Counted from the stretch's first letter, positions 10,275 through 53,000 are shown. The stretch: DNA of 64,000 nucleotides from an uncultured Candidatus Saccharibacteria bacterium (GCA_964607415.1 CAZSKK010000001.1:196190-260189); one strand, 5' to 3'. The notes: generated by a model not told the origin, from the sequence alone. A program made the numbers and translations.

Positions 10275-10277
10275 CCC

Positions 10278-11503: not shown

Positions 11504-11525
11504 TTTTGATAGGAGTATTTTAATG

Positions 11526-11597: not shown

Positions 11598-11759
11598 CAA
11601 AAAAAATAATATGCTGTTTGGCAAAACTAGGAACTATAAGATTTCCGCGTGTCTTGCAATGTATGTTACATATTACTAATAATGCTTGGAAATTATATCA
11701 CTATAAGTTAAACATGAGAATAAGAACTTTTTTATTAATATTATTTATAGCTAGGTCTT

Positions 11760-12464: not shown

Positions 12465-12541
12465 ATTGTGGCTTATAAAATATAAATGTTTGACTTACTT
12501 AATTACTTTCAATAAAATTTTAGCAGATTTAACTTCAAACT

Positions 12542-13096
12542 ATGAGTAAATTCCTGCCTTTATTATTGACTATAACAATGGCCATTTCATCATGTGGAAA
12601 CGAAGGAACAAGCCATGAATCTATTCTACCATCAGCCCAATCATCACCAACACCTCTTAAGATTATAGATTCAGCGCCAGAATTTATTAGAGCTTTTAAC
12701 ATTTATGTTGTATCAGATTTGCCTACTCCAGATGAAATAATCTTTGAAATAAACAACTATTTAAAAGTTCAAGGTAGTACAGGTCAAATTGGTATAGGAA
12801 GAGACAGCGATGGTGCAGCCGTTTGTTCTATTGAAATTATCACTTCAAAAGATGGAGAAGTGTTAACAAGCGTTACAACAGCTCAGGGAACAATGTACTA
12901 TATGGAAGCTTATGGAGAAAGGGCAATGTATGTTCCAAACTTAGAACGAGTAAGAAAGGGAACAGAGACGACAATTTTGCAGCCAAATACTACTTATGCA
13001 GTTGACAAAAATGAAATAGATTTTGTTGTAAATGCTTGCAGTAGCTTTGATATGGAAGTTCAAGAAATTAGATATTCTTTAGATCCTGAAGCTTAG
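12542..13096 (+). CDS. Lipoprotein (hypothetical)
   Basis: Signal peptide plus lipobox LLLTITMAISSCGN. Confidence 0.5.
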   Translation: MSKFLPLLLTITMAISSCGNEGTSHESILPSAQSSPTPLKIIDSAPEFIRAFNIYVVSDLPTPDEIIFEINNYLKVQGSTGQIGIGRDSDGAAVCSIEIITSKDGEVLTSVTTAQGTMYYMEAYGERAMYVPNLERVRKGTETTILQPNTTYAVDKNEIDFVVNACSSFDMEVQEIRYSLDPEA

Positions 13097-13440
13097 GAAA
13101 TTTGCTGTTTTTTAAGCTCATTTGCAATCCTTATCAGTGAAACTTTTAAATCTTTAATAAGATCACTTCTTTCATCTTCACTGCTATTCTTTGCTTTATT
13201 AAATTCTTTATCTAGAGCTACAATATCTTTTTTGATTTTTTCAAAATCCTTTTTAGATTCTTTAGATTTAATAATTTCTTCAAGTTGCGTTTTTATTGTT
13301 TCAAATTCACAAGCTAGTTCTTCGAGCTTTGATTTAACTTTTTGTTTATCTTCTGAGCTTGAAAATTTAGCAACAATTGCACCAATTAATGAGACAAGAA
13401 ATACTGCCCTAAGAATGTTTTTTATTATTTTCATAGACAA
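13093..13440 (-). CDS. Secreted coiled-coil protein (hypothetical)
   Basis: N-terminal signal/anchor followed by a Lys/Glu-rich heptad-like sequence. Confidence 0.4.
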   Translation of the reverse strand: MSMKIIKNILRAVFLVSLIGAIVAKFSSSEDKQKVKSKLEELACEFETIKTQLEEIIKSKESKKDFEKIKKDIVALDKEFNKAKNSSEDERSDLIKDLKVSLIRIANELKKQQIS

Positions 13441-13562
13441 CGAATTAAGATACCAAAATTATAAAAATTAACAATTTGAAGAATTTACAATTTTCATTAT
13501 TTTAGTCTTCCCAATGTATTTGAAAATTTTTAAAATTGAGAATTGACAATTATGCTTTACTT

Positions 13563-13934
13563 TCAGTCATTCTCAGGTTTAGTTGCCTGAACTGTTCCTT
13601 CGGGATGCTGAGGTGGAGCATAAATTGTATAAAGCTTAAGTTCTCCGTCACCAATATTAATAACGTTGTGTTTTGTTCCAGCTGGTACTATTAAAACATC
13701 ATCAACATTTAATTCAGACTCTTCACCATTTAGGATAGCTTTGGCTTTACCCTGCTCAATCCTAAAAAATTGATCATGGGTTTCATGTACTTCTTCGCCT
13801 ATTTCCTCGCCAGACTTCAACATCATGACTACCAGCTGCATATTCTTTCCAGTATGCAATACCGCCCTGTAGTTTGAATTGTGGATAGTCTCGTCATCTA
13901 TATTTGAAACGTAACCTACTTTAGATCGGTTCAT
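13563..13934 (-). CDS. Cupin-domain protein
   Basis: ETHDQFFRIEQGKAKAIL...VLIVPAGTKHNVINIGDGELKLYTIY carries the cupin-2 motifs. Confidence 0.6.
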   Translation of the reverse strand: MNRSKVGYVSNIDDETIHNSNYRAVLHTGKNMQLVVMMLKSGEEIGEEVHETHDQFFRIEQGKAKAILNGEESELNVDDVLIVPAGTKHNVINIGDGELKLYTIYAPPQHPEGTVQATKPEND

Positions 13935-14240
13935 AAGAATGATTTAAGAATTAATAGTAAGTAAAGTTGAAAGGCTTTAAAGTTTGAACGTTAAAACATT
14001 ATAACTTTGTAACCCTCCCCTATATTCTAGTACTGATTGGTATAAAGAGCAAATTACAGATGAATACCTAAGCCTAAATTGCAAAGTGCAGTAAACAAAT
14101 TCAAAATACTGTTCAAAAATTCAAAAAATAAACTGAAATTTTATGCTTGTATTGTTTTTATTTTTTTGAATCCTAAATCATTATTCCTGAATCATTTTAT
14201 CTATGCTATCATTGTTGGTCTTACACTTTTGTTAAATTTT

Positions 14241-16778: not shown

Positions 16779-19076
16779 TTATGCCTTCTGAATTCTTGAA
16801 ATTTTATCAACACAAATTTTAAGAGTTAGACCTAAAAGATAAATTACCTCGTCCGAAATAAAGTCTTTAGGTTCAAGCAATCCATGTGCAAGTTTATTCC
16901 TTAATCCATATTGATCCGAAACAAGTAGTAGCTCGAGTTGATTAATTTCATCTTCACCAATTAATTGCTCAAGCTCTACTCTATAAGTTGTAATAAGTTT
17001 TCCAAGCGTAAAATCATCCTGAACATCGTCAATTAACATGGCTGTAATTTCACCATTTTCTTCTAAGATATCTCTTAATGACTCTTCCAACTGAGGTATT
17101 AGAAAGTGCATAGCCTCAAGAGGTTTACCTGAAAGGGTTGCATGTAATCCTCTAAACCAAAGAATCGTTTGAGCTTCAGGTACAAAGTTACTTGAAGTCA
17201 AAATTGTATATTGAAAAAGTTTGTTTATTTCTTTTGCTAATTCCTGAGAATTAGCTATTTCAACAAGACTACCAAGTATCAAATTTCTATTGTGGATTAT
17301 ACCAGTACTTGGTTGAACTTTATTGGCTAACCCAACAAGGGTTTTATGAATAGACTGAGTTTCAACCAATTGTTGACCTTCTTTAAACTCGGCGTTATTT
17401 TGATCTATTTGTGAATCATGGATTGAGCTAAGATTTTGTAGTTGAAGTACATTAGTTCCAAACTTTCGCGTACTAATCTCTGCCATTTTCATTATAAGCA
17501 TTGACAAATAGAGCCCATCTACATTTGTAAAAGGCAGTTGTTGATCTGCAATTAATCCATGCATAATATTATTTCGTAGATTGGAACCAAATCTCTCAAC
17601 AAGTAGGCATCTTAAATTGAAGTATAGATCCTCACCAAAAATGTCAATTAAAGCTATTTTTGTTTCTTCCTGGTAAAGAAATTGATCGAGCTTATAGCTT
17701 TCTTGGATTTCTTCTGTTGTTAAATTAGGTGGAATTGTTCCATTTAAAACTAATGCATGCCTTAAAGACTGTTCAACTTGCGGAATTAGTAAGTGAATAC
17801 CTTTTGCATAATCTCCGTTTAAAATTGCATCTAAACCTACTTTAAAAATTTCTTGTCTATTTGCTGGAATAAACTTACTTTCTATTACAAAGTCAGGAAT
17901 TTCGATTAAACCTTCTTGCTCTTTTCGCAAAGCTTCTAGTGCTCCGTAAAATAAGACTGCATGCTCAGTTTGTTTAACTCTTGCTCTGTAAAAAACATGG
18001 TGGTTTAAACCATCTTCTGGAGTACCAACACCTTTATATTTATCATCTTTATCAATTACTATTGCAGGTATTGCACGCTCAAGTGGCGATAGTGTTGCTT
18101 CTAAATCTATAGATTTAGGTAGAAAATCCAACTGCATTAAATCGATCAATAAAGCGTCAATTGCCTTTCCTCTACCTAATGCATTACCTTCATTGAATAT
18201 TTTATCAACTGCATCTTGATCGTACGATTGTGGCCTTAGCTTTAGAAAGTCATTAGTAAAAAATCTTCCTCTGTCAGGAAGTTTTGCAGCTTCTTTTTGA
18301 TAGCTTAAAATTAACTTATTAAAGGCCTTGATTTCTGGTCTGAAAGTACCGATATTTCTAATTAAGGGTGGTCTTGCTGATGTATCAGTTAATCTACCTA
18401 ATGCGATTTCAGCTTCAAGCAGGGCTTCATTATGGTTTAAATACCCTTTTTTTAATCCTTCATTTATATATTCTGTGCCACGTATATTAACTGAATTTAA
18501 AAAAGCTTGCCTTGCGCTAATCTCATCTGAATTGAGCATATGAATCTGAGCTTTAATTTCGAAGTATTCACTTTTTCTGATAAAAAGCATAGCTCTAATA
18601 CGTACATCAGAACTAGTATCTAATAGTTCGTTGAATTCTAGTATTTTTGCTTCAATTATAGGTAAATAAGTTGAAGGATCGCATTCATTAAAATCAATAA
18701 GATGTTGAATCAAATTTTTTTGATAAATAATTTCTGCAATATCTAATGTAGGGAAAACTTTTGAATTTATTCTTTGAACTTCACTCTTTATATATGATAT
18801 GGATTGAGTATATATAGGATTATTTTTACCTAACTGCAAGGATATTTTGCATGCTCTGGACGCTCTTTGTAGGGAAAATTCGTAAAGCTGTTGTCGCTTT
18901 GCAGGAGATTTTATTGCTTTGTCTCTTAATTCCTGAGCACTTAAAATATAATTTTCTGCTGCACTTTTAGTAAATGGATAAAGATTTCTTACATCTTGCA
19001 TTGTAAGTTTGTATCTTAGTAAATCGTGAACTATTGCAGCTAGTTCTGGATTTTTAACTGGAAGAATGCTATTCAA
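16779..19076 (-). CDS. Large protein with two tandem C-terminal repeats each carrying an Rx4HG (HEPN-like) motif; possibly DUF4209-related
   Basis: Repeats: HLLIPQVEQSLRHAL...SNLRNNIMHG and HFLIPQLEESLRDIL...GLRNKLAHG. The track start is TTG. The frame stays open upstream to 19361 with no canonical start. Confidence 0.55.
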   Translation of the reverse strand: MNSILPVKNPELAAIVHDLLRYKLTMQDVRNLYPFTKSAAENYILSAQELRDKAIKSPAKRQQLYEFSLQRASRACKISLQLGKNNPIYTQSISYIKSEVQRINSKVFPTLDIAEIIYQKNLIQHLIDFNECDPSTYLPIIEAKILEFNELLDTSSDVRIRAMLFIRKSEYFEIKAQIHMLNSDEISARQAFLNSVNIRGTEYINEGLKKGYLNHNEALLEAEIALGRLTDTSARPPLIRNIGTFRPEIKAFNKLILSYQKEAAKLPDRGRFFTNDFLKLRPQSYDQDAVDKIFNEGNALGRGKAIDALLIDLMQLDFLPKSIDLEATLSPLERAIPAIVIDKDDKYKGVGTPEDGLNHHVFYRARVKQTEHAVLFYGALEALRKEQEGLIEIPDFVIESKFIPANRQEIFKVGLDAILNGDYAKGIHLLIPQVEQSLRHALVLNGTIPPNLTTEEIQESYKLDQFLYQEETKIALIDIFGEDLYFNLRCLLVERFGSNLRNNIMHGLIADQQLPFTNVDGLYLSMLIMKMAEISTRKFGTNVLQLQNLSSIHDSQIDQNNAEFKEGQQLVETQSIHKTLVGLANKVQPSTGIIHNRNLILGSLVEIANSQELAKEINKLFQYTILTSSNFVPEAQTILWFRGLHATLSGKPLEAMHFLIPQLEESLRDILEENGEITAMLIDDVQDDFTLGKLITTYRVELEQLIGEDEINQLELLLVSDQYGLRNKLAHGLLEPKDFISDEVIYLLGLTLKICVDKISRIQKA

Positions 19077-29501: not shown

Positions 29502-29702
29502 TTATTTTTTATATTCCAAGATATCTCCTGGCTGACAATCTAATGCTTTACAAATCTCCTCTAATGTCGAGAGTCTAATAGCTTTAGCTTTTCCATTTTT
29601 TAGAATCGAAATATTTGCCATAGTTATTCCAACTTTCGCGGCAAGCTCAGTCACACTCATTTTTCTTTTGGCAAGCATTACATCAATATTTATTATAATC
29701 AT
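29502..29702 (-). CDS. XRE-family (Cro/C1-type) HTH transcriptional regulator, YozG-like
   Basis: MSVTELAAKVGITMANISILKNGKAKAIRLSTLEEICKALDCQPGDIL. Confidence 0.75.
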   Translation of the reverse strand: MIIINIDVMLAKRKMSVTELAAKVGITMANISILKNGKAKAIRLSTLEEICKALDCQPGDILEYKK

Positions 29703-29712
29703 GATACTTTAT

Positions 29713-30189
29713 TTAAACAGTTAACTCGTTTTCGGATTTAATATCTGCGCCATTTTCCAAAAGTTTTTGAAAAACAATAGTTGCTGCTACAACAACAAAG
29801 ATTGCAAAAATTACATAAATGCCTAAAGCCACTGGGCCTGAACCGTCCTCTTCGCCCCAGAAAGATATGTATGATATTGCAACTGCAATAAAGATGATTA
29901 ATGCCAACGAGTAATATCTAATATTTCTTACACACTTTATGGATGGTTTGGTGAAAATTTTATTTGCCTCAATATAACCTATTAATTTAAATACCTGGTA
30001 CAGTGCTAAAAAAAATGGAGTTGATCCTATGTAAACAAACCACAAAAATGGATCTTTTAAATAAATTTCCAGTAATGTTGCATCCACGTTTCTACCTTCT
30101 AAGTGTGGGAAGATAAGCATTCCAATAAGAGCAGCTATACCAATAAGTAAGATTACTAGCTTAAGGAATAAAGTTGATGATGGCTTCAT
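29713..30189 (-). CDS. DUF2975-like integral membrane protein (usual partner of YozG-like HTH)
   Basis: Four TM helices. Immediately upstream of, and co-oriented with, the XRE gene. Confidence 0.5.
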   Translation of the reverse strand: MKPSSTLFLKLVILLIGIAALIGMLIFPHLEGRNVDATLLEIYLKDPFLWFVYIGSTPFFLALYQVFKLIGYIEANKIFTKPSIKCVRNIRYYSLALIIFIAVAISYISFWGEEDGSGPVALGIYVIFAIFVVVAATIVFQKLLENGADIKSENELTV

Positions 30190-30353
30190 GCGATAAAATT
30201 AATATTTAATAAGTTAATTTATCATATTAAATATTATATTACAACAAAAATATATTGAATTACAACAAATGGTTTATTATTTGCATTTGAACAAGCAAGG
30301 TAATTACACTTTAAAACTAATACTCTGGCTGTTATAATAGCATGAACTTTGAT

Positions 30354-30426
30354 GGTGGTCGTAGCTCAATGGTGGAGCACCTGTTTGTGGAACAGGGGGT
30401 TGAGGGTTCGAGCCCCTCCGACTACC
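30354..30426 (+). tRNA. tRNA-His (anticodon GTG) with encoded G-1
   Basis: G-1 plus GTGGTCG TA GCTCAATGGTGGAGC A CCTGT TTGTGGA ACAGG GGGTT GAGGG TTCGAGC CCCTC CGACTAC C. Confidence 0.75.
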
Positions 30427-30457
30427 CCAAAACTACACACCATCTACCCTCGCAACT

Positions 30458-30895
30458 CTACTCTCCTTCCTTCCACAATATCCTATCAATAGGCCCATTC
30501 TTCGATTTTTCTTTTATATTCATATACGATTGTTGAAGAATTTGTTCAAGAATCGGAAGCCTGATATCGTTAAGTGTTTTAATATAAATGCAATATCCTG
30601 TAATTGTATGCTTACCCAAGTTTTCTAATAGCTTAGCATAACGCGCAGTACCATCCATCATGTAAATAGTAATTTTACCCTTTCTTGGATAAAACCCAAT
30701 AATAAGACCATCACCTTCTCTTCCACTTTTGTACTTATAATGGTAGGTATCAAATCCTATTGTTCCTACATTCCAAAGTTTTGGTTCTTGGCCACTTATT
30801 TTCTTCATTATTTTAAGTAGCACTTGTGAATCTTTTATAGTTTGCTCATCATTTAGTGAAGCTATATATGTGGTTACTGTATGGCTATTACTCAT
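30458..30895 (-). CDS. DUF1801 (YdhG-like) domain protein
   Basis: 145 aa. Overlaps the upstream gene by 4 nt. Confidence 0.4.
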   Translation of the reverse strand: MSNSHTVTTYIASLNDEQTIKDSQVLLKIMKKISGQEPKLWNVGTIGFDTYHYKYKSGREGDGLIIGFYPRKGKITIYMMDGTARYAKLLENLGKHTITGYCIYIKTLNDIRLPILEQILQQSYMNIKEKSKNGPIDRILWKEGE

Positions 30896-31446
30896 GCTTT
30901 ATTATACTGTAAATGTACAAATCCATTTTCAAATTTTTCTAGGCTAACCAACTTAAGATTAACTCTAGTATCTTTTGGTAGCCAATGATTACCATTCCCA
31001 ATTATTTGTGGAACAATAATTTGATGATATTCATCTACTATATTAGCTCTTATTGCCTCCGCAGCTAAATGCGGTCCTCCAATATCAAAATCTTTATTTG
31101 ATTCTTTAACCATTTTCTGAACGATTTTGGGATCAAATGAATGCTCAATTATTGCATTTGCAATTTCGAGTTTTTTAAGCGAAGTTGAGTAAACTATCTT
31201 TTTTGTTGAACGCCAAATTCTAGCATAATCATTCATTGCTGGACTTGTTTCATCAGTTGGAATAGTATCCCATACTTTCATAACCGCATACATTTTCCTG
31301 CCAATAAGTGAAGTTCCAACATTGCGGACAGTATCATTTACAAATGAATGTACTTCTTCTGTTGGCATTGCCCAATCAAAATTACCGTTTTGATCTGCAA
31401 CAAAACCATCTAATGATGTTGTGATTAAGTATACTAATTTACCCAT
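30892..31446 (-). CDS. RibD C-terminal-domain / dihydrofolate reductase-like family protein
   Basis: MGKLVYLITTSLDGFVADQNGNFDW is the PF01872 hallmark. Confidence 0.65.
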   Translation of the reverse strand: MGKLVYLITTSLDGFVADQNGNFDWAMPTEEVHSFVNDTVRNVGTSLIGRKMYAVMKVWDTIPTDETSPAMNDYARIWRSTKKIVYSTSLKKLEIANAIIEHSFDPKIVQKMVKESNKDFDIGGPHLAAEAIRANIVDEYHQIIVPQIIGNGNHWLPKDTRVNLKLVSLEKFENGFVHLQYNKA

Positions 31447-31470
31447 TTCTATATTGCTGGATTTATAATT

Positions 31471-31656
31471 TTACATCGCTAAATGTACCATTAGTTCATA
31501 TACAACAAATGCTGGCCAAACAAGAGCTTTTAAAACTCCAACTAAGCCTTCTCCAAAAGTTGAAGCTTCCGAAATGTAATATACCAATGCTCCAATTAAC
31601 CCAAGGCCATAAACTGCACCTGAAGAAGCATTGTTTTGAACCACAGTTCTTGACAT
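31471..31656 (-). CDS. Small membrane protein
   Basis: 61 aa with two hydrophobic helices (YGLGLIGALVYY...). Confidence 0.35.
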   Translation of the reverse strand: MSRTVVQNNASSGAVYGLGLIGALVYYISEASTFGEGLVGVLKALVWPAFVVYELMVHLAM

Positions 31657-31761
31657 TTTGTAAATAATAAAAAATAGTATTTAAAATTACAATTAAATAC
31701 TATACCTAAAGAATTTGAGTGTAAAGTTGTAGAAGTATAAAAAGTCTTTTGTACCTGCCCT

Positions 31762-34700
31762 CTAATACAAATTTTTTTTCAAATTTTTTAAAGCTTGTTC
31801 TATTTTTACAGCTTTTTCTTCAAGTTGAAGCTCATTTTTATAAATTCCTAGTGCATTTTCTAAATTTAAAATTGCAGTTTTAATGTCTCCGTCAGTTTCT
31901 GCAAGTTCACCTAGATATATTAATTCTTCTGCAATTTGAATTGTGACCTTTTTATCCCTATTTTGACAGCCTAAGCTATTGAGTAATTGCTCCCTTGCTG
32001 TATAGTAATCACCTAACATGGCGTGTGATTTTGCAAGCCAAAGATAGTTAAGTGATAAGTTTTGCCATCTTCTTTCTGTATCTATGTTTGGCGCATCTGA
32101 TTCCAAAAAACCAATATTTATTTGCAAAAGTTCAATAGCTGTTTGATACTCTCCCAAATCATAGTTGCATTTTGCAATCTGATATTCTGCAGCAATTCTT
32201 CTAGATGTATTAGTATTATAATCAAGATTTATGCATTGCTGATAAAGATATATAGCGGCATTCAGATCTATTTTCGATTTCCTGTAAAATTCAGCCCATT
32301 TGAAATATTCACTTCCAATTGAATGGTCTGTTCTACCCGCTTGAGTCATAAACTCAACTTTTTCCAAAATGTAGTCTTCAAGTTTTTCTTTAATTGAAAT
32401 GTCGAAGCGATTAGCCTCAAGAGCATTACTATAGTTTGATAAAACTTTATCTAAACTATACAATATACTTCTTAAGTTATGTGCCAAATTTTTCCTATGC
32501 TGTAATCCTTGTTCATGTGCTCTTGCTGCTGCGTAAAAATCACCACGGTTGCTATAAAGTTCTGCAAGTGCTTCAAAAATATAAGGAGCAAATCGGTAAT
32601 CATTTGTTTCAAATAAGTCGGATAAGCTTGCTTCAAAATATGTAAGTGCAGTCTCTTCATTTCCCAGTGCATACTCATTCTTTCCTAAATTAAATTCTAC
32701 AAATGCTTTTGTTTTTAAATCGTTGCTGCTTTCCGCAATCGCATAGGCCTCTATTAATGCATCGTTTGCCTGTGCATACATACTTAATTCTGTGTAAGAT
32801 CGGCCTAAATTATTTAAGGTATGTGCTTTGGATCTTCCTGTATCGCTGTAGTTTAGAGCCAATTGAAAATCTGCTGTGGCTTTATCAAATTGTTTTAACT
32901 TATGATAAGTTTCACCGCGTTCATTTAAGAACAAATTTAAGTCATTTTCATTGGCAGATTCGATTAATAAGTCTAGAATCTCTAGTGCTGATTCATACCT
33001 TTTGGTTTTAGCATATAGTTCTGCTAAGCCTGCGTAAATGTATTTTATTGGGCCTTGAATTTCATAATTATTTGGTGCTAAGTCTATAGCTTTTTGGTAT
33101 TCGTGAATTGCGTCAGAATACATTCCTAGTTCTTGGTACACTTGTGCAATTTTGCCTATTGCGTACATAACCATATCCAAATTCCCACGACCTGATTCAT
33201 AAACAATATCTATACTTCTTTGATAAGCTTCTATTGCCTCTGGCATCCGGCCTTGCATGGTATATAACTCTCCCAATTGAGAGTATGTGTAGGATAGCTC
33301 TTTGCCATTTTTCAGCTCGGTAGATAAATTTAAGGCTTTCATGGCGTACTCAAATCCCATATCTATGTTATTAGCTTCAATGTAGGCTGTAGATAGATCA
33401 TTGTAAATTCTAATTCTGTCATATCTTTCGCCTACTTCCCATTCTGTAATTAATGCTAGATTGGCTTCAAGATAATTAATTGCTGCGCCTGGGTTTGTTC
33501 TTTTTTGCAAATTACCAAGTCCTTTTTGAAGGTCATACCTAAGTTCTATGAGATGCGTATCGGTTTCTTTTAGATATCCCAATCCCTTTATGTATGCAGT
33601 AATTGCTGCTCCTTTGTCTCCATCTTCTTCATATCTTTTGCCGCATTGAAAATAATATTCTACTCTTTCGCATCTGAAATAATTTGCCTTAACAACATAT
33701 GTGTTTATTTTTTCTTCAAGTTCTTCAGTATTAACCTGCGCAACATAACTACTTGTTATAGGATGTAAACAAATCACCCCAAATTCTGAGTATTCTATCA
33801 GCGATAGATTTTCAAGTTCCTCTAAAACCTTTTGAATATCATCGACATTGGAAAGATCTATTAACTCTAATTCAGTAGCTCCACTTGGAAATAAGCTAAG
33901 GCTAGTTAGCAAACTTTTAGCACTGTCACTAAGCGATTTATATAAATTTTCAAAGCAATATCTTGCAAGTTCAGATTGACCGTAAAGATTAAAATCTTGT
34001 TCAATTTCAAAAATGGTTTTGTCGCTTCTTGCAATATCCGAAACAACCCAATTAATTACTGTTGGAAGACCTTTGGTAAACATGTATATTCTTTGAATAT
34101 CATTTTGAGTAAGACTTTTTTTTGCATTTTTATTGTTGCTATCCCATACTTGTCTGATTAATTCCTTTGAAGCTCTTTCAGTTAAAGGGGGGACTGCTAC
34201 TTCAACACCCAAGTTCTGGGGTCTAGTAGATGTAACAATTATTTTTACATTAGGAAAGTTGCTTGCAAATTTTAAAAATTCAACCACTTGATCATCAACT
34301 GTATCAATGTCGTCAATTATAAAAAGTGCTTTTTCATTATTTGCAAAACAGGAATTTTTTACAGCAATTATTCGATCTTCAATTGAAACATTTTCGCTAA
34401 AAGCTGAATTACCATAGAATGTTGAAATTTGAGTTAATATACGACTTAATGTGTTTCCTAAATCATCTTTTGGGGTTGGTATGACTGAGTTTGTAGAAAT
34501 ACTTTCATCCCTAGCTGACAAAAATAGTATATACTTAAACGTTTCTTGGTCAGGAACTATCTGAGCGTTATCTTTAAATTCATATGCTATTTGTTTTGCT
34601 AATTCGGTTAGACCAACCGCAGGATGTCCACAAAGTTCAATAATCGATACATTAGGATCGTTAAGCATGCTTTCTACTTCTTTATTAATATCATTCCTTC

Positions 34701-35382
34701 TTAGAGGTGTTTCAGGACGTTTATATAAGTTAAGTTTTGGAAATTTTTCCTGCATTTCATCGGGATTAGATTGCATGTTAATCAAATCTATCAATTTTCT
34801 ATTAGTATCTGTTGTTGTTTCTTCAATTATGTTTAGTTTTGGTAGCACCTCAGCGTCTAATATGTTGATCGTATCTTCGTGTCTGGCTACAATTTCAGGG
34901 TGCATTTCATTCAAACGTTCCAAGACAGTATTTACTTCTCTTAGTATTTCATCTTCAAATTGAGCATGTAAAATTGCAGCATCATCAAGCTTGTGGCTTA
35001 TAACTCTTACAAATCTTCTGATTTCTTCATCGTTAATGTTTTTACCTTCAGCTACTTTCCCCAATATGTTTCCTGTTGCTTCACCAATAAGGCTCATTAC
35101 AAGATCTTTTGCAGGTTGACTAAGTGCTATGCCTGCAAGAACCGCTGGTGGTGGGACACCTATAAGTACACTTGCGCCTAACGCAATAAGTGATACATTA
35201 ATAACTTGTGCTGCTTTTGCTGGAGCTATATCTTTAACTCTGTCTAAAAAACTCAAAACGTTTTCGGTTCTTGCTAAATTTTCCGATTCACCAGAAGAAG
35301 AATTAAACCCGCCTCTACCACCATCTGGCGCCAGAAATATTTGAAAGATGTCATTATCCATAAGTGAGGGTTTATAATTCAC
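31762..35382 (-). CDS. STAND NTPase (NB-ARC-like, degenerate Walker A) with long C-terminal TPR array and N-terminal hydrophobic domain
   Basis: GHPAVGLTEL sits where GxxxxGK[ST] is expected. Walker B is LFIIDDID. GLPTVINWV resembles the NB-ARC GLPL motif. Roughly 700 aa of TPR-like repeats. N-terminal VINVSLIALGASVLIGVPPPAVLAGIAL. Confidence 0.6.
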   Translation of the reverse strand: MNYKPSLMDNDIFQIFLAPDGGRGGFNSSSGESENLARTENVLSFLDRVKDIAPAKAAQVINVSLIALGASVLIGVPPPAVLAGIALSQPAKDLVMSLIGEATGNILGKVAEGKNINDEEIRRFVRVISHKLDDAAILHAQFEDEILREVNTVLERLNEMHPEIVARHEDTINILDAEVLPKLNIIEETTTDTNRKLIDLINMQSNPDEMQEKFPKLNLYKRPETPLRRNDINKEVESMLNDPNVSIIELCGHPAVGLTELAKQIAYEFKDNAQIVPDQETFKYILFLSARDESISTNSVIPTPKDDLGNTLSRILTQISTFYGNSAFSENVSIEDRIIAVKNSCFANNEKALFIIDDIDTVDDQVVEFLKFASNFPNVKIIVTSTRPQNLGVEVAVPPLTERASKELIRQVWDSNNKNAKKSLTQNDIQRIYMFTKGLPTVINWVVSDIARSDKTIFEIEQDFNLYGQSELARYCFENLYKSLSDSAKSLLTSLSLFPSGATELELIDLSNVDDIQKVLEELENLSLIEYSEFGVICLHPITSSYVAQVNTEELEEKINTYVVKANYFRCERVEYYFQCGKRYEEDGDKGAAITAYIKGLGYLKETDTHLIELRYDLQKGLGNLQKRTNPGAAINYLEANLALITEWEVGERYDRIRIYNDLSTAYIEANNIDMGFEYAMKALNLSTELKNGKELSYTYSQLGELYTMQGRMPEAIEAYQRSIDIVYESGRGNLDMVMYAIGKIAQVYQELGMYSDAIHEYQKAIDLAPNNYEIQGPIKYIYAGLAELYAKTKRYESALEILDLLIESANENDLNLFLNERGETYHKLKQFDKATADFQLALNYSDTGRSKAHTLNNLGRSYTELSMYAQANDALIEAYAIAESSNDLKTKAFVEFNLGKNEYALGNEETALTYFEASLSDLFETNDYRFAPYIFEALAELYSNRGDFYAAARAHEQGLQHRKNLAHNLRSILYSLDKVLSNYSNALEANRFDISIKEKLEDYILEKVEFMTQAGRTDHSIGSEYFKWAEFYRKSKIDLNAAIYLYQQCINLDYNTNTSRRIAAEYQIAKCNYDLGEYQTAIELLQINIGFLESDAPNIDTERRWQNLSLNYLWLAKSHAMLGDYYTAREQLLNSLGCQNRDKKVTIQIAEELIYLGELAETDGDIKTAILNLENALGIYKNELQLEEKAVKIEQALKNLKKNLY

Positions 35383-35662
35383 GGAATTTTAACACAAAAA
35401 ATACTCAAATATATAAAATATAATGCAAAGTAAGCTAAACAGTTAACGGTATTAAAATCTAATAATTAATTCCCCAATTACTGGCGGCAATCAAATAAAA
35501 TGAGATTAAAAGCTTTATGATTGTTTATTTATAAATATATTAAAGAGTTGTATTTATTATAAATCTTCCAGAACATTTTGACGTACTATTCAACTCTCTA
35601 AAAAACTATGTGATAATGACGCATGGCAGCTACTGTCATTTTATATTTTTTAAACCCTTTAT

Positions 35663-36532
35663 ATGTGGATTCTTCTTTCGGTGCTCTCAACAATAAGCCT
35701 TTCAAGTAAAAATTTGCTAAGTAAATTTGGCGCCGGCAAAACAAATGAATATGTAAATATGTGGGCAATGGCTTTTTTTACTTTACCTGTTGCTGGAATT
35801 GCATTGTTATTTAGTGATTTTGAAATATCTGACAACAAGTTTTGGCTTTTGATTGGTCTAAGAATAATTCTTGAAAGCATTGCATTAGTAGCTTTTTTTA
35901 GAGCTTTAAAATTTAAATCGGCATCTTTTGTTATTTCAATAATGTCGCTTCAGCCTGCTTTAACAATAATCACTACTTTTTTTATAAGCGACCAGAAAGT
36001 TCCTTTACTTGGAATTGGTGCAATTTTGGTAATTGTTGCTGCAAACTTTATGCTTTTTCAGTCTGAAAAAAAGTTAACAAATAAAGAAGATATGCCCAAC
36101 CTAATTAAGGCTACTCTTCTAATATTTACCACTACTTTGCTGTTTAGTGTTTTGGATCCATTGCATGGAGAGATAATTGAAGTTTCAAATCAATTTACAT
36201 ACTTTTTTGTAAGTGAGCTTTGCTTTACTGTTGTTTACAGTATTTTAGTTGGAGCTAGATTTAGAAAGGAATTTAAGCAAACATTCTCTAATAAAAAGAA
36301 TGGTTTATTAATTGCAGGAATTGGTGTTTCATTTGGGTTTGAACTTTTAACTTTGTTTGGAGCAATAACTTCAAGCGATTATGTTTCTTACGTTTCAGCA
36401 ATAAGAAGTGCAAATATTGCATTAACTGCAATACTTGCTTTCTTTTTGTTTAAGGAAAAATTAAGTAGACTTAAATTATTTTCAATAGCTCTTATGACTC
36501 TTGGGGTGTTGATCCTGGTCTTATCAAAGTAG
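35663..36532 (+). CDS. EamA/DMT-superfamily transporter
   Basis: Ten predicted TM segments in two EamA-like halves. Confidence 0.55.
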   Translation: MWILLSVLSTISLSSKNLLSKFGAGKTNEYVNMWAMAFFTLPVAGIALLFSDFEISDNKFWLLIGLRIILESIALVAFFRALKFKSASFVISIMSLQPALTIITTFFISDQKVPLLGIGAILVIVAANFMLFQSEKKLTNKEDMPNLIKATLLIFTTTLLFSVLDPLHGEIIEVSNQFTYFFVSELCFTVVYSILVGARFRKEFKQTFSNKKNGLLIAGIGVSFGFELLTLFGAITSSDYVSYVSAIRSANIALTAILAFFLFKEKLSRLKLFSIALMTLGVLILVLSK

Positions 36533-44076: not shown

Positions 44077-47000
44077 TTAAAGTTTTGTGTGGCTATAACT
44101 AGCAACTGCACCACCACCTGCCTCATAATATTCAACTCTTACTGTATGTTCTCCTGCTGTCATTGTTCGGTTAACATCATAGTTTGTTCCTCCATGATCA
44201 GTCCAGAAATCTATAACCAAAACATCGTCGACATAGACCCTTATACCATCATCACTGTAGGTGTGAAATCTATATGTTCCAGCATCAAAGTTAAACTTAC
44301 CATACCATTTTGCAGAAAAATTATCAGTTGCTACTCCATTACCAGGCCCACCTCCGCCCCAGTCAAGATGAAAGCTGGATGCGTTAATGGAAGTACTGTA
44401 TGTCAACATTTGTGCCCATGGAGTAGTTGTTCCATTATAGTACTCTGCGCAGAATTGACCTGTCGGCAAGTTGCAAACTGGTGTGCTGTTGTTTCTCCAT
44501 ACAAGTTTCGAAATAGCTCCACCACCCTTTTCATAAAACTCCATTCTGATTTTATGAGAACCTGCTGGCAAAGTTATATATCCATAATCATATGTGCTTC
44601 CATGGTCTGTCCAGTTATTAATAATTAGTGTATCATTTACCCAAAGTCTGACACCATCATCAGTTAAAGTTCTAAATGTGTATGCTCCAGCAGTTAAAGT
44701 GTAATAACCTTCCCATCTAACAGAAAAATTATCGTTGCTTATTCCATTACCTGGTCCACCTCCGCCCCAGTCGTAGTTAATACTTCCTGTACAATTTGTA
44801 TATATTACATTTGCACTTAAGGTAGTATTATAGTAATAAGAACCTCTAAAGTTATTTTCTGCGCAGTAACCTGCTCTAACAGCAACCTGATTTTCAGCAA
44901 ATAACCCTCCGCTATCAGTTACCCTAAAGGTTAAATTTTCTACTCCATACCAGCTTGAAGGATAGGATATTGTAGCTGTATCACCTATAAATGAAACTTG
45001 GATATTTGTATTTCCACTTACGCTCCAGGTCGAAGTATCACCTACGTCTGGATCTGATCTATAGCTTGCAAGATTAACCTGTTTTGAATATTGGCTGAAT
45101 AAAAGTGATTGATCAGGAATATCTTGTAGTACTGGTGCATGATTTACATTATTTACCTGAAATAGTGCTGAATCGCTGTCTGATAAATTCCCAGAATCAG
45201 TTGCAGTAAATGTGATTGTTTCGCTTCCCGTCCAGTTTGCGGGATAAGTTACAGTAGCTACATTCTCTTGATTAATTGAAACTGTAAGATTTGTATTTCC
45301 AGAATTTGACCACGTTACTGTATCATTAGGATCCATTACATAATTATCAAGATCAAATGTTGTAAAATTTGAACCTGCATCAATTACTTGATCTAGAATA
45401 TCAGAAACTACTGGAGCACTATTTAATTGAGTAACTGTAAAAATTACATCCTTTGATGTGGACAAGTTTGTGCTGTCGGTAGCAATAAATGTAATGGTCT
45501 CTGCCCCCAACCAGTTCTGAGGATATGTAATAGTCACAACTTTATCCGAATCCATAGCTACGTTTAAGCTTGATTGACCCGAATATGACCACGTTATGGT
45601 GTCGTTAGGATTAATATCTGTCACATAATCATCCAAATCAAATAGTTGAAAATTTTCACTACCTGATATTGTCTGTCCTTGCAAGCCTTGAATTACTGGA
45701 GGTTCATTTGTAGCTATTGCTAAATTTGTAAGTATTTTTGCATTGCCATCCAGTTCTAAATATTCAACTTTTATATTGTGAAATCCTGGTGTCAAGCTTA
45801 CAAAAGAATTTATTACTGATGGTCCAGTGTACCATTCATCCAGTATAAGTGTGTTATCAATCCAAACTTTAGCACCATCGTCAAAATCTATGTTGTAAAT
45901 ATATGTACCTGCTTCAGAGATTTGAACAAAGCCATCAAATCTTACAGAAAAGTTATTTGTAACTCCTGGATTTGGGCAAGAAAAGGTGCTAACCACTTGC
46001 GCCAAAGTTACCTCTCCAGTTAAAGATTCGCATGTCAAAACTTTTATGTACCCATTGCCACCAATTCCTCCAGCACCTGCAGGAGAACCACCGCTACTTC
46101 CTCCTAATCCACCATTGGCTTGTACAAGATTGGATCCAATATCCATGATATTTGCTTTTAGAATGACAGTTCCTCCAGCTCCTGCACCACCACCACCAGA
46201 TCTTCCATAAATATTTTCTGGTGGAGGGTTATTATATGACCCATTACCACCATCGGTACCTTTTGCCACGACTACACCAGAGCTAGAAATGTTTAACTTA
46301 TATGCCTCAATAATAATTATTCCACCTCCATTTCCACCTGTACCTCCAAGGTTTGAGTAAGCTCTTCCTCCTCCACCTCCAGCACCACCAAGTAATGCTT
46401 TATTTACATCAGGATTAGTTACTGCACTTCCAGCAATGCCTGGTGGATTAGCTCCCCCGTTGGCACCATTTGCTCCTGCTGTAGCATTTCCACCACCTGC
46501 GCCACCTGGACCACCTTCTAATGCATTGGTTCCACCTCCACCACCATTTGCATTGTTATACCATTGGTTTATTATTTGACCATTTATGCTTTCACCAGTT
46601 TTTCCATAAGAGCTTAAATCGCTTACTCCACCTCTATATCCTTTTCCGTTTACATCAACTATTCCATTAATTAATATTTGATCTCTAACTTTAAATGCCA
46701 TTACACCTCCCGTTGATCCATCCCATGGATGTACAGTTAATGTTCCATTTACTGTAAGATTGTTGTATTCATTAACTTTTAGTAGTTGAACTTTATTATT
46801 TGTATCAGCTGTATAGCTATTTATTATTCCGGATTCTAAGGTTAAAGTATTGCCGGCAATATTTGTAATTTTCCCAAATTCATACGTTCCCGTTCCAGAT
46901 CCTTGCATTTGAATTATCAAAATCTCATTACCAATTGCGAATCCTGCTGAATTTGAAACTGAGACTTGGCTTGCACCAGCATTTAGTGTAGTTGTAACAC

Positions 47001-50000
47001 TCGTTCTAATGTCATCGGTATAGCTTGTTACACCTGAAGCTACAGTTAAATCGCCATCAGTTCCATTACCGGGTCTTTGCATTGCTGGAAAGCCTTCTGG
47101 CCCACCGCTACCCCAATCATAGTTAACGCCCGGAACACAGTTTACAAATGAAGGGTCTCCGCTCAGTCCAGTATTATTGAAGAACTCAGCATTATATTCA
47201 CCTTCATTACAAAGACCTCCCGCAAAAGTTGCCGTATCTTCAACAAATTCATTGTCTTCATCGGTAATTCGGAATGTTATATTTTCTGATCCCAACCAAT
47301 TAGCTGGCTTAGTTATTGTTACAATATTTCCTGCGTCTATATTCACGGTAAGCTCAGTGTTTCCAGTATAAGACCAACTAACCTGTTGATAGGTATTAGG
47401 ATCTGATCCAAAGTTATCTAAATCAAAGCTCTCAAATTCGTTATTCACTCCAACCAGTTGATTAGGAATATCAGAAATGGTTGGTGGGGTATTCTCGATT
47501 TCTATAATATTCATATCTATTTCTGCAGTTAAATCGTTCTCAAAGTATTCAACTTTAAGCGTATGTGTCCCAGCTAAGATTTCCGAAACTTCGCTAATGG
47601 TTTTGGCTCCATTGGTCCATTCATCTATAATTAAGTTTTGATCTAACCAAACTCTTACACCATCATCAACATTCAAGTTAAATTGGTAGGTTCCTGTGGT
47701 GAACTCTTGTGACTTTTCCCATCTTGCTGAGAATGTATCTATTTCGCAAGCGGCTTGAGTTTGATTTAAAGTTGGGCTGGTTGTTCCTGTTGTGCTATTA
47801 CAGTATTGAATTGCAATTCGTCCAACACCTCCTGCACCACCAGGTCTATTACCTCCACCTACTCCACCCAAAGCTACTACTTTATTTGTACCCAAATTTG
47901 CGTTTTCAACCTCTAACTTTATAGAACCACCAGCTCCAGCCCCTCCTCCAAAGTGAGTTGCATGAATTCCACCATCATTCCCACGAGATGTTATTTGTCC
48001 GTTTACAGTTAAAGTTTTAGCTGCAATACCAATAATTCCACCACCATTTCCTCCTGCTTGTCCATTTTCCATTCCTCCTCCACCTGAAGCTGCTGCTCCT
48101 CCTCCGCCACCAAAATTCAGCTTAGATAGGTCAGCTGTTCCTACTGCATTACCTCCTTGAGAACTGTTAGAATGTCCTCCAAGTCCGGCTGTTCCATTAC
48201 CTCCTCCAGCACCGCCATTGTTGTCAGGTTCTCTACCACCACCACCACCATTTGTAGTAGCAACATTTGTCCTTGCACTAGCTAGAGGCATAGAAGCTTC
48301 GCCTGCATATCCATAATGTGGTCCTTGCGGTGCATTGGTTTGTGCTCCTCCTCTGAATCCTTTTCCTTGTGCAGATATTGTTCCATTTACAGTTATGGTG
48401 CCATTAGCATAAAAGTATAGAATACCACCAACTGCACCGTTCCATGCCTTAGCTGAAAGAGTAGCACCATTATTGATAGTAACGTTTGAATATTGCTTTA
48501 TTACCAAAACTTGTGCAATATTCCCTGCTCCATCAGTAGCATAACTAATATTTAAAGGATCTTTTACAGTTATAGTTCCTGGAGAATAAGCTACAATCTC
48601 ATTTATTTGATAAGTACCATAGTTAGTTCCAATTGTTTGATGTATTAAGATTTTTTGTCCAGTTGCAAAGTTTGGATTTGTAGAATAAAGAGTTGTTGTT
48701 CCTTGCAATCCCGATGTTTGAGCATCAATTGGATTATCTATTGTATCTGTGCTTATTATCAACTCTCCATCTTGTCCATTCCCAAACTTATCAGATGAAA
48801 CTGGCCCACCTGCACCCCAGTTATGCGTAAGAGCACTCTCACACCCAATAACTTCAGGAGTACCTTGCAATGTTGTATTATTGTAATATTGAGTTTTAAA
48901 TTCACCAATATTACACTCCAAAACTTCATATCTTACTGTTTGGGAATTTTTTGCACCCCATGAATCTTCAGCTTCAAAAGTAATATTTTCAACCCCAAAC
49001 CAACCTACAGGATAAGTAATTGTAACTATATTATCTTGATCTTTTTGAACAGAAAGTGAAGAGTTCCCAGTATACGACCACGTGATAGGATCGTTATCTG
49101 CATCTGATCCAAATGTATCTAGATCAAAAGTTGCGAATTGTGTTGTTTGCCCTATGGTTTGATTTTGAATTCCACTTACAATTGGTGCATTATTTGTGAA
49201 TGGGTATATTGCAAGATCAATATCTGCAGCACCAGTTGAATCAAAATATTCAACCTTAATGTCGTGATAGCCTTGAGTTAAAGTTAACTCAGCTTGAGTA
49301 TCAGTTTGGCCTATAATCCAACTATCTATAAGAATGTTGTTGTCAACCCATAGTCTAACACCATCATCAGACTGTAAAGTGAATGCATAGCTTCCAGCAT
49401 TAAAGTATTGAATCTTATTCCATCTTGCAGAGAAATTATCTTTAGCACAAGATGTTATTGTGTTTGGGTTACTAGTTACACTTCCAGTTACACTGTTACA
49501 AGTATATGTCATTATTCTGCCTGAACCTCCTACACCACCATTTCCTGCTCCATTAGCACCTGCTCCCCCTCCGGCTCCACCAGCATGTAAAACAGAGTTT
49601 GAAGTAAAGTTTTTGGCTCTAAGTTTAATTGAACCTCCTGAACCACCACCACCACCTCCACAATTACTGCTAGAATTACCACCTGCTATTCCATTGACAT
49701 TAACTGTTCCATCTACTGTAAGATTACCTGTAATTTCCATTAATAATGCTCCCCCACCTGCTCCCCCTTCACAACCTCCAGGGTTTGGTGGATCTTTTGC
49801 TCTACCACCTGCTCCCCCTCCAGAACCTAAGTAAAGTTCATCAACAAGAGCCGTTCCGTAAGTTGCACCTGCACTTCCTCCTGCGGCACCGCTAACCGAA
49901 ACGCCATTTGCTCCAACGGTTGCATATGAACCACCACCTCCTCCTCCACCAACATCTGGACCTCTTCTACCTCCTCCACCAGAACCTGCTCCACCATTTA

Positions 50001-53000
50001 GCGCACCAGATGGTGAAGGACCTTCGTTTCCCCAGGTATGTATCCATGGGATTTGCCCTCCTGTATAAGATTCACCGCTTTGACCTGTAACTGCATCATC
50101 ATCACCTTCTTCGTTTCTGTATGGTTTACCACCTCTAAAGCCTTTACCTGATAATTCTATCGTACCTGTTGAGGAAACATTTGCATTATTTGCTTTTATT
50201 GCAAGGATACCTCCAACATCACCATTCCATGCATTTATAGTAAGTGTTCCTTGAATAGTAATTTGGCCGTATTTTTCAATCTTTATAACTTGAGCCTTGT
50301 TATTCGTTCCAACCGTATATGTATTTGTTAAATTTGTTCTTAAAGTCAAACTATTTGATGTTATTGAATCAATTCTTGCATATTCATATTTACCTGCATT
50401 TGTTCCCATCATTTGAATTACTAAGACTTCATCATTAACTGCAAAACCTGATGTACTTGATACGGTAATTGCACTCTGACCGCTATTTGCAGTTGCTGTA
50501 ATCTTACTTTCAACTGTATTTGCTGTATATGTTGTATTTGCGGCAACATTTAAGTCTGGAAGGCTTGAATCAATAGGGCCTTCATTTCCCCAATCATGAG
50601 TTACACTAGGTTCACAGATGCTGAATTCTGCTTCACCTTGTAAATTGTTATTTAGAAAGTACTCTCCTTTGTACTGATCTAGATTACAAGGTGTTACTTT
50701 AAATATTGCAGTATCGGTATCAAATCGATTATAAATATCAACTGCCTTAAAAGTTAGTGTTTCTTCACCCGACCATCCTTGTGGTTTAGCAATTGAAACA
50801 ATATTTTCGGAATCCTTAGATACAATTAGGTTTACGTTTCCAGTAATTTCCCATGTTACAGGATCATTATTTGGATCAGTTACTAAAGTATCTAGGTCAA
50901 ATGTTGCAAAAGTATCATTTATACCTATTAATTGATCAGTAATGTCGCTTACTACTGGAGCTTCATTAGTTGAAGGAGAAACACTAAATAAAATGTTAGC
51001 GTTTTCTGTTGCTTCAAAGTATTCAACTTTAAGATTATGCAATCCTTCGGTAAGAGTAACTTCCACTTGGTTTTCATTAACCCCTGAGTTCCAATCGTCA
51101 ATTACAATATTATTATCAATCCAAGCTCTAATTCCATCATCAGATTGGCTGGATATAAAGTAATTGCCAGCTACGAAGCTATCAGTTTTGCTCCACCTTG
51201 CAGAAAAATTATCTTTTGCACAAGAAGTTTGAGTATTTGGTGTGGTTGTTATGTTCCCTGTCAGTTCGTTGCAGCTGTAAGTCATTACTCTTCCAGCTCC
51301 TCCATTTCCTCCATTCCCCCCACCGTTGCCTGTGCCTCCCACTCCACCATTTACATAAATAGTAGAGTTTGAAATAAAGTTTTTAGAAATAAGCTTAACA
51401 GATCCTCCAGCACCTCCTCCGCCTCCTCCACAATTATTATGACTACTTCCTCCACCAATTCCATTTGAGTTCATTGCACCGTCAAGTGTGAATGTTTCTG
51501 CTGCTTCAATCAATATAACACCTCCACCTACTCCACCATCACAGTAAATTGGATGAGGTGGATCCTTTGCTCTACCACCTGCTCCCCCTCCAGAACCCAA
51601 GTAAAGTTCGTCAACAAGTACATTTCCATGTACTGTTCCTGCACTTCCGCCAGCAGCTCCACTTGAAGTTATGCCGTTTGTGCCAGCTGTACCGTATGAA
51701 CCACCACCACCGCCTCCTCCTGTATCAGGACCTCTTCTACCTCCTCCACCAGAACCTGCTCCTCCATTTAGCGCACCTGATGGTGAAGGACCTTCTCCAC
51801 CCCAAGTATGGATCCAAGGAATTTGGCTACCTGTGTAAGATTCACCGCTTTGACCTGTAGCCGAATCATCCTCTCCTAGTTCATTTCTGTAAACTTTACC
51901 ACCTCTAAACCCTTTTCCAGATAATTCTATATTTCCAGTTGATGAAACGTTTACATTATTTGCTTTTATTGCAAGGATACCTCCAATATCACCGTTCCAT
52001 GCGTCAACTGTAAGTGTTCCGTCAACATTTACTTGATCGTATTTTTCAACTTTTATAACCTGTGCTTTATTGTTTGTACCCACTGTATAAGTATTTGTTA
52101 GATTTGTTGTGAGAGCCAAATCAGTAGCTGTTAGTGATGCAATTCGTGCGTATTCGTACTTACCGGCATTGGTCCCCATCATTTGAATAACTAAAACTTC
52201 GTCATCGATTGCAAATCCACCGGTATTTACTAGGGACACAATATTTTGTGCTCCTGTTGCTGTTGTTGTTAGTTTTGATTTAACATAATTTGCAACATGA
52301 GTTGTATTTTGTGTAACTGTAAGATCAGGCTGTGCAAGATCAGTAGGTCCCTCTAAAGACCAGTTATGATTTACATTTTGCTCACACTCTCTAAATGCTG
52401 GGCTTCCTTGTAGGTTATTATTAAAATAGTATTCGGTTTCATAAGCCCCTGCAGTACAATCAATACTGATTAGATGTGTGTCTGAAACAGTGCTACTTGC
52501 ATTTGAAACAGTAACACTGATTTGTTTTTCACCATAATCAAAGAATTTGTATGTTGCTGTTGCAGTGCCTTGGCCGGATTGTGGTGTAGGTATCCAATTG
52601 TAATTTATTGGAACTGTTGCATTGCCAGGATTAAAGCCTGCATTAAAAATATAATCAGTTTCTACTGTTCCAGAAACTGCTCCAGTTATTGTTACATCGG
52701 TTAGAGTAATATCCTGGACTCTAAAGCTCCAAGTTGGGCTCCAGCTTCCTTCCCCAAAATCATTCCAAGATTTAACTCTCCAATAATATGGATTTACAGA
52801 TGGAGTTAAGTCAGTTTTTGTCCAGTATGTTAATGTATTTATGCCCCTTCTTATTGGTTGGGATAAGTTGCCTCCCGACAATTCGATATCATAGTCATAC
52901 CCATTTCCAAACCATTGCATTGTTACAGTGCTTCCTGTTGGATATAGAGTTCCGTTAGAAGGTATAACATTTGTTGGTGCTAATGGTGCTGGTGGACATG

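Follow-up and report, generated by a model that had tools for sequence, protein, structure and literature searches.

STAND and NLR proteins are commonly described as switches driven by nucleotides, and the Walker A lysine is generally indispensable for binding the beta and gamma phosphates in P-loop NTPases. Here, we analyse a STAND protein, a bacterial relative of the NLR immune switches known from plants and animals, encoded on the minus strand of a 64,000-nucleotide stretch of DNA from an uncultured Candidatus Saccharibacteria bacterium; this whole stretch is called the window below. Its Walker A loop has neither the lysine nor the two central glycines. The reading we favour, at about even confidence, is that of a lineage-restricted and vertically inherited NB-ARC (AP-ATPase) STAND protein that has turned into a pseudo-NTPase and serves as a membrane-associated scaffold or sensor. 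Residues are numbered along an open reading frame (ORF) of 1206 codons, and the AlphaFold numbers are 7 lower. The gene and its three parts, the central one being the nucleotide-binding oligomerisation module (NOD), are as follows.

31762..35361, minus strand: STAND gene, 1199 residues and a stop codon, starting at the ATG at 35361, which is Met8 of the 1206-residue ORF
34687..35361, minus strand: N-terminal domain, residues 8-232, predicted all-helical, with a conserved motif PDGGRGGF at residues 19-26
33703..34686, minus strand: NB-ARC-type NOD, consisting of nucleotide-binding domain (NBD), helical domain (HD) and winged-helix domain (WHD), residues 233-560
31765..33702, minus strand: TPR sensor region, residues 561-1206, about 33 helices or roughly 16 TPR-like pairs

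Closest described systems

Among solved structures, PH0952 of Pyrococcus horikoshii (6mfv) is the best match both by profile (1.3e-7) and by full-length fold (2.9e-12). In both proteins the NBD, HD and WHD are followed directly by a TPR sensor array. However, PH0952 has a canonical GIGKT Walker A and only 653 residues versus 1199 in the STAND protein, whose 225-residue N-terminal domain has a detected counterpart nowhere, PH0952 included.

The nearest relatives of the NOD are NB-ARC proteins, several of them with TPRs, from Anaerolineae, KSB1 and cyanobacteria, with 22–28% identity over 80–90% of it. They are represented by the protein P0003 and are often annotated automatically as 'LuxR family glucitol operon transcriptional activator' or 'ATP-binding protein'. 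An NLPxP-like motif before the NOD, a hhhhD Walker B and a GxP followed by W are common to them and the STAND protein. In contrast, they all keep GxGGxGK[ST] and the TTR of sensor-1, and they read LLP where the STAND protein reads LHP. Their transmembrane (TM) helix comes at the very start of the protein and is joined by a short linker, whereas the hydrophobic segment of the STAND protein is embedded in the 225-residue domain.

The plant coiled-coil (CC) NLR resistosomes ZAR1 (6j5t), NRC4 (9cc8) and Sr35 (7xc2) are top Foldseek matches at about 1e-9, with a common plan of helical N-terminus, NB-ARC and repeat sensor. The N-terminal helices of such CC-type NLRs insert into the membrane after oligomerisation, and we use this as a working analogy. 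Their activation needs an intact P-loop, however, and their sensor is made of leucine-rich repeats (LRRs), not TPRs. Moreover, any likeness at the N-terminus is tentative, with a predicted local distance difference test score (pLDDT) below 66 and a root-mean-square deviation (RMSD) of about 20 Å.

The Avs and bNACHT systems share the tripartite layout of effector, STAND NTPase and TPR-like sensor. The STAND protein differs from them in having no match to Avs hidden Markov models (HMMs), no known effector, no Walker A lysine, which bNACHT01 requires, and no defence island in the window. Rice Pb1 and Arabidopsis ADR1-L2 are NLRs that lack the P-loop or act independently of it and are proposed to be scaffolds or helpers (PMC3478704). 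These are eukaryotic, LRR-based and related only at the level of the NB-ARC superfamily, and the loop of the STAND protein is itself strongly constrained.

The regulators MalT, AfsR and GutR have a MalT-like TPR sensor in common with the STAND protein but differ in their DNA-binding output domain. Searches with family models gave no helix-turn-helix (HTH), LuxR or Trans_reg_C match in the STAND protein, and neither a LuxR-type HTH nor a SARP output domain was found. As to how the N-terminus may work, it was compared with membrane-inserting executioner domains (plant CC, HeLo/MLKL-like and bacterial Bell), whose helical bundle puts a hydrophobic helix into the membrane upon oligomerisation; it is predicted to be helical, with pLDDT of 26–76, a borderline TM segment and no family match. 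In its way of working, the STAND protein would come closest to the TPR-STANDs of the PH0952 type and to the NB-ARC-TPR proteins of bacteria that are TM-anchored.

Identity of the nucleotide-binding module

The NTPase stays below every Pfam cutoff, with AAA_22 (2.2e-4), NACHT (1.1e-3) and NB-ARC (3.8e-3). The NB-ARC model PF00931 scores 13.1 bits with the full-length protein and 17.0 bits with the NOD alone, versus its gathering threshold of 23.5.

Homology is clearer than these scores. A search of 5.8e9 database sequences yields P0003, which carries PF00931 and PF13191, at E=2.6e-10, and BLASTP aligns the NOD with it across 342 columns at 1e-14. A three-sequence profile run in HMMER matches PH0952 as given above and also the plant proteins NRC1 (2.9e-4) and MLA13 (4.8e-3). 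The same profile retrieved 100 NB-ARC relatives.

The AlphaFold2 model of the NOD was built with the alignment of these relatives and shows, in residues 233–576, the beta-alpha pattern of the P-loop fold at pLDDT of 85–96. With the model of the N-terminal domain and the NOD, Foldseek finds PabY2304 (4.5e-10) and then NRC4, NRC3, ZAR1 and Sr35 (about 1e-9). CED-4, Apaf-1, RPP1, Roq1 and MalT (8bob) are further matches ranked ahead of ORC/Cdc6, and the probability is 1.00 for NRC4, ZAR1, CED-4, Apaf-1, PabY2304 and MalT.

The P0003 homology, the profile matches, the 100 retrieved relatives and the confident model with its Foldseek matches together establish, by sequence comparison and modelling, a genuine NB-ARC-type NOD of NBD, HD and WHD despite the sub-threshold Pfam scores. 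An NB-ARC-like NTPase had been named in a preliminary description of the gene. The family models alone leave that assignment below threshold, and it is the homologue and fold matches that bear it out.

The Walker A loop and other nucleotide-site motifs

Five motifs of the nucleotide site can be placed in the NOD.

34606..34629, minus strand: remodelled Walker A, GHPAVGLT, residues 252-259, aligned on GxGGxGK[ST]
34303..34326, minus strand: Walker B, LFIIDDID, residues 353-360, with Asp357 kept
34219..34245, minus strand: sensor-1 (RNBS-B), KIIVTSTRP, residues 380-388
34063..34071, minus strand: GxP (GLPL-like) motif, GLP, residues 438-440, aligned with GVPLA of relatives, the proline being invariant
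33760..33768, minus strand: MHD-like LHP in the winged helix, residues 539-541

In the Walker A loop, the lysine position is taken by Leu258 and the positions of the two central glycines by Pro254 and Ala255, with Thr259 as the usual [S/T]. Just before the loop, Cys251 stands where 83 of the 101 relatives in a MAFFT alignment have an aspartate. In that alignment the lysine is kept by all 101 relatives and the two glycines by 98 and 100 of them, while L, P and A stand at the three positions in the query clade. The register is the same by BLASTP (against GVGGIGKS of P0003), by HMMER (against GIGKT of PH0952 and GLGKT of both NRC1 and MLA13) and by MAFFT.

The preliminary description had called the Walker A degenerate, which holds, but had taken the threonine for the replacement of the lysine, which does not, as the leucine is in the lysine position and the threonine is the ordinary [S/T] residue. 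The possibility that this segment had been mistaken for a P-loop, with a canonical GKT elsewhere, is not borne out either. GHPAVGLT aligns exactly at Walker A, and a motif scan of the full proteins found GK[ST] nowhere in the query or in its orthologue.

The orthologue, 55% identical overall, has the same loop. The longest identical run between the two whole proteins is 31 residues long (residues 242–272, DPNVSIIELCGHPAVGLTELAKQIAYEFKDN) and centres on GHPAVGLT. A simple calculation puts the probability of a run of this length at about 5e-6 for 55% identity and at about 5e-3 even for the local 75%. These comparisons show a Walker A loop that was rewritten and then held invariant under strong purifying selection.

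The other motifs are variably kept. At position 358 of Walker B, the query has Asp while the orthologue (LFIIDN) and the relatives have Asn, and the motif aligns with hhhhDNLE of 87 relatives. Sensor-1 reads TSTR in the query, TGTK in the orthologue and TTR in 83 relatives, so its basic residue is shifted by one and is not invariant. His540 of the MHD-like motif is kept in the orthologue, while the GKS-bearing relatives read LLP at this place. Given the established roles of the lysine and of the backbone amides of the glycines, these replacements make it very probable that the protein no longer binds and hydrolyses NTPs in the canonical way.

Reading frame, selection and distribution

The minus strand of 31762..35382 is an uninterrupted ORF of 1206 residues when counted from the GTG at 35382. 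Translation almost certainly begins at the ATG at 35361 (Met8), because two gene calls begin at a methionine matching residue 8 (MD...). One is P0001, the identical protein of 1199 residues in other assemblies, and the other is P0002, the 55%-identical orthologue of 1201 residues. The strings quoted in the preliminary description are all found at their places, the hydrophobic stretch at residues 57–88, GHPAVGLT at 252–259, LFIIDDID at 353–360 and GLPTVINWV at 438–446. Its three-part architecture also stands, with corrected sizes: the N-terminal domain has about 225 residues instead of about 230 and the TPR part about 640 instead of about 700, on either side of the NB-ARC-like NOD.

The gene differs by 0–3 nucleotides among at least seven sequencing runs. 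Between the two species, the ORFs are intact and the whole-gene dN/dS is about 0.19 by the Nei-Gojobori method, with dS near saturation. By the same method and with the same near-saturated dS, dN/dS is 0.15 for the NBD, 0.16 for the hydrophobic segment and 0.63 for the helical region of residues 116–205. The NBD is the best-conserved domain at 75% identity, and the fastest-changing parts are the TPR array and the 116–205 region. With the ORF intact in two species, dN/dS this low and the loop invariant, the gene is evidently under purifying selection and functional rather than decaying.

The family is so far confined to two species-level lineages and a handful of metagenomes. No STAND-family relative was found in 185,579 GTDB species genomes, no member in JGI metagenome contigs by a peptide-pattern search, and no further member with a back-translated GHPAVGLTEL pattern. 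On plasmids, tblastn found no STAND homologue.

N-terminal domain and TPR array

The N-terminal 225 residues match no family in Pfam, NCBIfam or PADLOC. An exhaustive hmmsearch of 1.84e9 representative proteins with residues 8–232 found no homologue, returning only their own cluster and two spurious matches. The latter, P0105 and P0106, were rejected as relatives of the domain because they are short-motif matches to internally repetitive proteins. The AlphaFold2 model has helices here at the low to moderate pLDDT already given. The domain contains one outstanding segment.

35119..35214, minus strand: hydrophobic segment AAQVINVSLIALGASVLIGVPPPAVLAGIALS, residues 57-88, a candidate membrane-associating helix-PPP-helix

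Its Kyte-Doolittle score over 19 residues reaches 1.98, above the threshold of 1.6 and the highest in the protein. It has small-xxx-small motifs and is 69% identical to the orthologue. A strongly hydrophobic TM-like helix is also present in 19 of the 100 related NB-ARC proteins, at the extreme N-terminus and about 70 residues before Walker A, so membrane tethering recurs among these relatives. Membrane association of the N-terminal domain is thus plausible, while a role as 'membrane-active effector' is speculation. An amyloid-signalling (BASS-like) link between the N-terminus of the STAND protein (…GGFNSSSGE…) and that of a small neighbouring protein of 61 residues (…QNNASSGAV…) was considered and rejected, the orthologue having DSSPSE there.

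The TPR repeats of the preliminary description are well confirmed. Two Pfam models match above their cutoffs, TPR_12 at 1.7e-29 and TPR_MalT (PF17874) at 6.1e-17 and 62.3 bits versus a cutoff of 45, and the modelled helices make up about 16 pairs. The full-length AlphaFold2 model has a mean pLDDT of 82, and its TPR helices run from residue 552 to the C-terminus at pLDDT of 80–98. This is the model that finds PH0952 as the best full-length structural match. The array is the most divergent large domain between the orthologues, with 49% identity.

Neighbourhood of the gene

Two features lie on the downstream side of the STAND gene.

31471..31656, minus strand: protein of 61 residues with two hydrophobic helices, 105 bp downstream of the STAND gene and in the same orientation
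30355-30429, plus strand: tRNA-His, an integration site

The upstream genes encode an EamA transporter, a 142-residue ORF, an ARMT1-like phosphatase and a 250-residue ORF, and their order is identical beside the 55%-identical orthologue. Downstream, the 61-residue protein is followed by RibD_C, DUF1801 and tRNA-His. Since the flanking genes are shared with the orthologue, the gene is invariant in at least seven runs and there is no plasmid homologue, it appears to belong to the vertically inherited core of the chromosome and not to mobile DNA.

The small two-helix membrane protein noted earlier is a real ORF and is kept beside the orthologue too, as the counterpart MEKKTVVQNNASSGAVYGLGLIG lies downstream of P0002 on the contig L002. 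Its gene adjoins the STAND gene in all 15 contigs of the species. No terminator-like site was predicted in the 105-bp gap, although the promoter and terminator scan as a whole performed at chance level. The protein is a conserved neighbour and a possible partner of the STAND protein.

Genes of 39% identity, annotated 'hypothetical protein', are found on linear plasmids of Rhodococcus sp. DK17, DK176 and DK180 (L091 4962-5144). They adjoin a universal stress protein and a magnesium transporter and have no STAND neighbour. Judged by these homologues, the 61-residue protein is part of a wider uncharacterised family. A dedicated partnership with the STAND protein is weakened, because the homologues stand alone on the Rhodococcus plasmids.

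The contig L003 of a sister strain is 99.8% identical to the window over 36100..30424 and then continues into about 8.4 kb of foreign DNA (5678-14133) absent from the window. This insertion sits at the 3′ end of tRNA-His, 28 bp of which are repeated where the foreign DNA ends, and the STAND gene is outside it. Its genes encode a Gabija-like OLD-TOPRIM/AAA_15 protein (747 residues), a UvrD helicase (660 residues), a SpoVG-like protein and several of no assigned function. The Gabija-like OLD-TOPRIM/UvrD pair is thereby 1.5 kb downstream of the STAND cluster in that strain. A defence island was considered from this neighbour and rejected, as the pair belongs to the tRNA-His insertion that the window lacks and that excludes the STAND gene. 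A 64-residue ORF at 30342-30536 on the plus strand was also rejected as a gene, being tRNA-His read as protein.

The EamA transporter (window 35663-36532, plus strand) and its counterpart on L001, a contig with the orthologue, show 98.6% protein identity and dS of 0.29. The adjacent genes have 55–72% identity to L001 and dS of 0.6–1.8. This discrepancy suggests a recent single-gene exchange of the transporter between the two lineages. The orthologue contigs also have two extra small genes of 118 and 41 residues between EamA and the STAND gene (L001 3989-4533; L002 165-709). These are absent from the window, where the intergenic region of 35362-35662 is about 300 bp.

Proposed mode of action and alternatives

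In the favoured reading of a membrane-associated pseudo-NTPase, the loss of the lysine together with Pro254 would leave the protein without the canonical switch of ADP/ATP exchange and hydrolysis, as the proline would take a backbone NH away from the phosphate-binding loop. The NOD would then be a fixed structural or oligomerisation scaffold, or a binder of a non-nucleotide ligand. The TPR array may bind a protein or peptide ligand. The helix-PPP-helix segment, rich in Ala, Gly, Val, Ile and Leu, would bring the protein to the inner membrane, either at its surface or inserted in it, and the output would be delivered there as regulatory scaffolding or membrane damage.

Several observations weigh against this picture. 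With Asp357, Thr259, the GxP proline and the MHD-like His540 retained, some binding of ADP or ATP may persist. The statistics of conservation rest on no more than two distinct sequences and are therefore thin. As a TM candidate, the hydrophobic segment is borderline, with a simple Hessa-scale sum of +3.2 kcal/mol and AlphaFold2 confidence below 50. Finally, precomputed Pfam assignments place caspase, TIR or Mrr domains in NB-ARC relatives, and these domains keep a role in conflict or defence in consideration.

That last point belongs to an explanation by antiphage defence, which the preliminary description had offered beside the pseudo-NTPase scaffold. The TPRs would sense a phage protein, the protein would oligomerise, and the N-terminal domain, with or without the 61-residue protein, would permeabilise the inner membrane and kill the infected cell in an Avs-like abortive infection. 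The effector, NOD and TPR-sensor plan is that of Avs and NLR proteins, most prokaryotic STAND sensors are TPR-like (PMC13581612), and the fastest evolution in the TPR array and the 116–205 region would fit as well. The Foldseek alignments to the plant CC-NLR resistosomes span about 510–540 of the 569 modelled residues and reach into the helical N-terminus, although at that RMSD of about 20 Å. The Gabija-like pair near the STAND cluster of the sister strain points the same way but lies inside the tRNA-His island that excludes the STAND gene, and none of the ten neighbours in the window is a defence gene. PADLOC-DB gave two generic TPR models and nothing Avs-like, and Pfam, NCBIfam and PADLOC recognise no effector domain, be it nuclease, protease, SIR2 or TIR. 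Mutation of the Walker A lysine, naturally absent here, abolishes the defence by bNACHT01 (10.1101/2022.07.19.500537), and a 2026 census classes 198 of the 589 prokaryotic STAND clades as defence-associated (PMC13581612). The synteny kept between species, the lack of within-species variability and the lack of plasmid relatives also speak against it. We regard this explanation as unlikely; the tests that were run favour the pseudo-NTPase scaffold of the two earlier proposals and leave the antiphage one unsupported.

The protein could instead be switched by nucleotide like a conventional STAND, through a competent loop of unusual sequence, where the nucleotide is held by backbone amides, Thr259, Asp357, the shifted Arg or Lys of sensor-1 and His540. 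Of the six classical contact motifs, the protein does keep four, namely Thr259, the Walker B aspartate, GxP and the MHD-like histidine that GKS-bearing relatives lack, and the extreme conservation of the loop would fit a ligand-binding site. The lysine is, however, invariant in all the relatives and of general importance for phosphate binding, while Pro254 would remove a backbone NH donor and the loss of two glycines would stiffen the loop, so we consider such a switch quite unlikely. Rather a long shot is that the rewritten loop, far from dead, has become a new nucleotide-independent switch or ligand site, for a metal or small molecule held by Cys251, His253 and His540 for example, that controls the oligomerisation of a bacterial NLR-like protein whose hitherto undescribed helical N-terminal domain enters the membrane. 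If true, this would make the protein an executioner or signalling hub at the membrane that resembles a resistosome but works free of a P-loop.

It is very improbable that the protein is exported or injected into a eukaryotic host, with the TPRs binding host proteins and the hydrophobic segment targeting host membranes. The low GC of 0.31, the poor sampling of the lineage, the nearest ABC-F matches being only about 55% identical and from metagenome-assembled genomes of uncultured Gammaproteobacteria, an N-terminal domain without bacterial relatives, and the giant RHS/PA14 protein and the eukaryote-like domains (the ARMT1-like one, for instance) that the window also encodes would all suit it. 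This evidence is circumstantial, and neither a secretion signal nor a secretion-system gene was identified near the STAND gene. The degenerate Walker A, the displaced sensor-1 and the sub-threshold Pfam scores of the NTPase would fit a STAND gene that was once active and is now a relic in decay. The selection data effectively refute this explanation, with intact ORFs of 1199 and 1201 residues in two species, the low dN/dS, the 75%-identical NBD and the invariant loop.

Returning to the pseudo-NTPase scaffold, a P-loop without its lysine that is nevertheless the most conserved part of the protein makes a natural test of what a NOD can do without the switch, as a fixed scaffold, as a site for an alternative ligand or in a helper role. 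The question parallels that of the plant NLRs that function as helpers or sensors without relying on the P-loop. Should the N-terminal domain turn out to act on membranes, bacterial NLR-type proteins would gain a new kind of output module. The impact is limited by the confinement to two species-level lineages and by the earlier computational notice of inactive STAND modules in bacteria (10.1101/2022.07.19.500537).

Other features of the window

The lineage is poorly sampled and its genome GC is 0.31. A 4587-residue ORF (44077-57840, minus strand) has DUF6531, RHS repeats in nine stretches, Big_9 and seven PA14 domains. Its GC of 0.37–0.41 versus the background of 0.31 and its domains suggest a horizontally acquired RHS-type toxin or adhesin.

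Just past tRNA-His is a two-gene cassette (29502-30189, minus strand) of a DUF2975 membrane protein with 158 residues and an XRE-type HTH protein with 66. Beyond it are a 181-residue gene without family match and a NUDIX-wHTH fusion (27956-28657). Farther away, the window encodes an AlkZ-like DNA glycosylase (19677-20753), a DUF4209 protein of 765 residues (16779-19076) and a CHASE2-adenylate/guanylate cyclase sensor (7209-9149).

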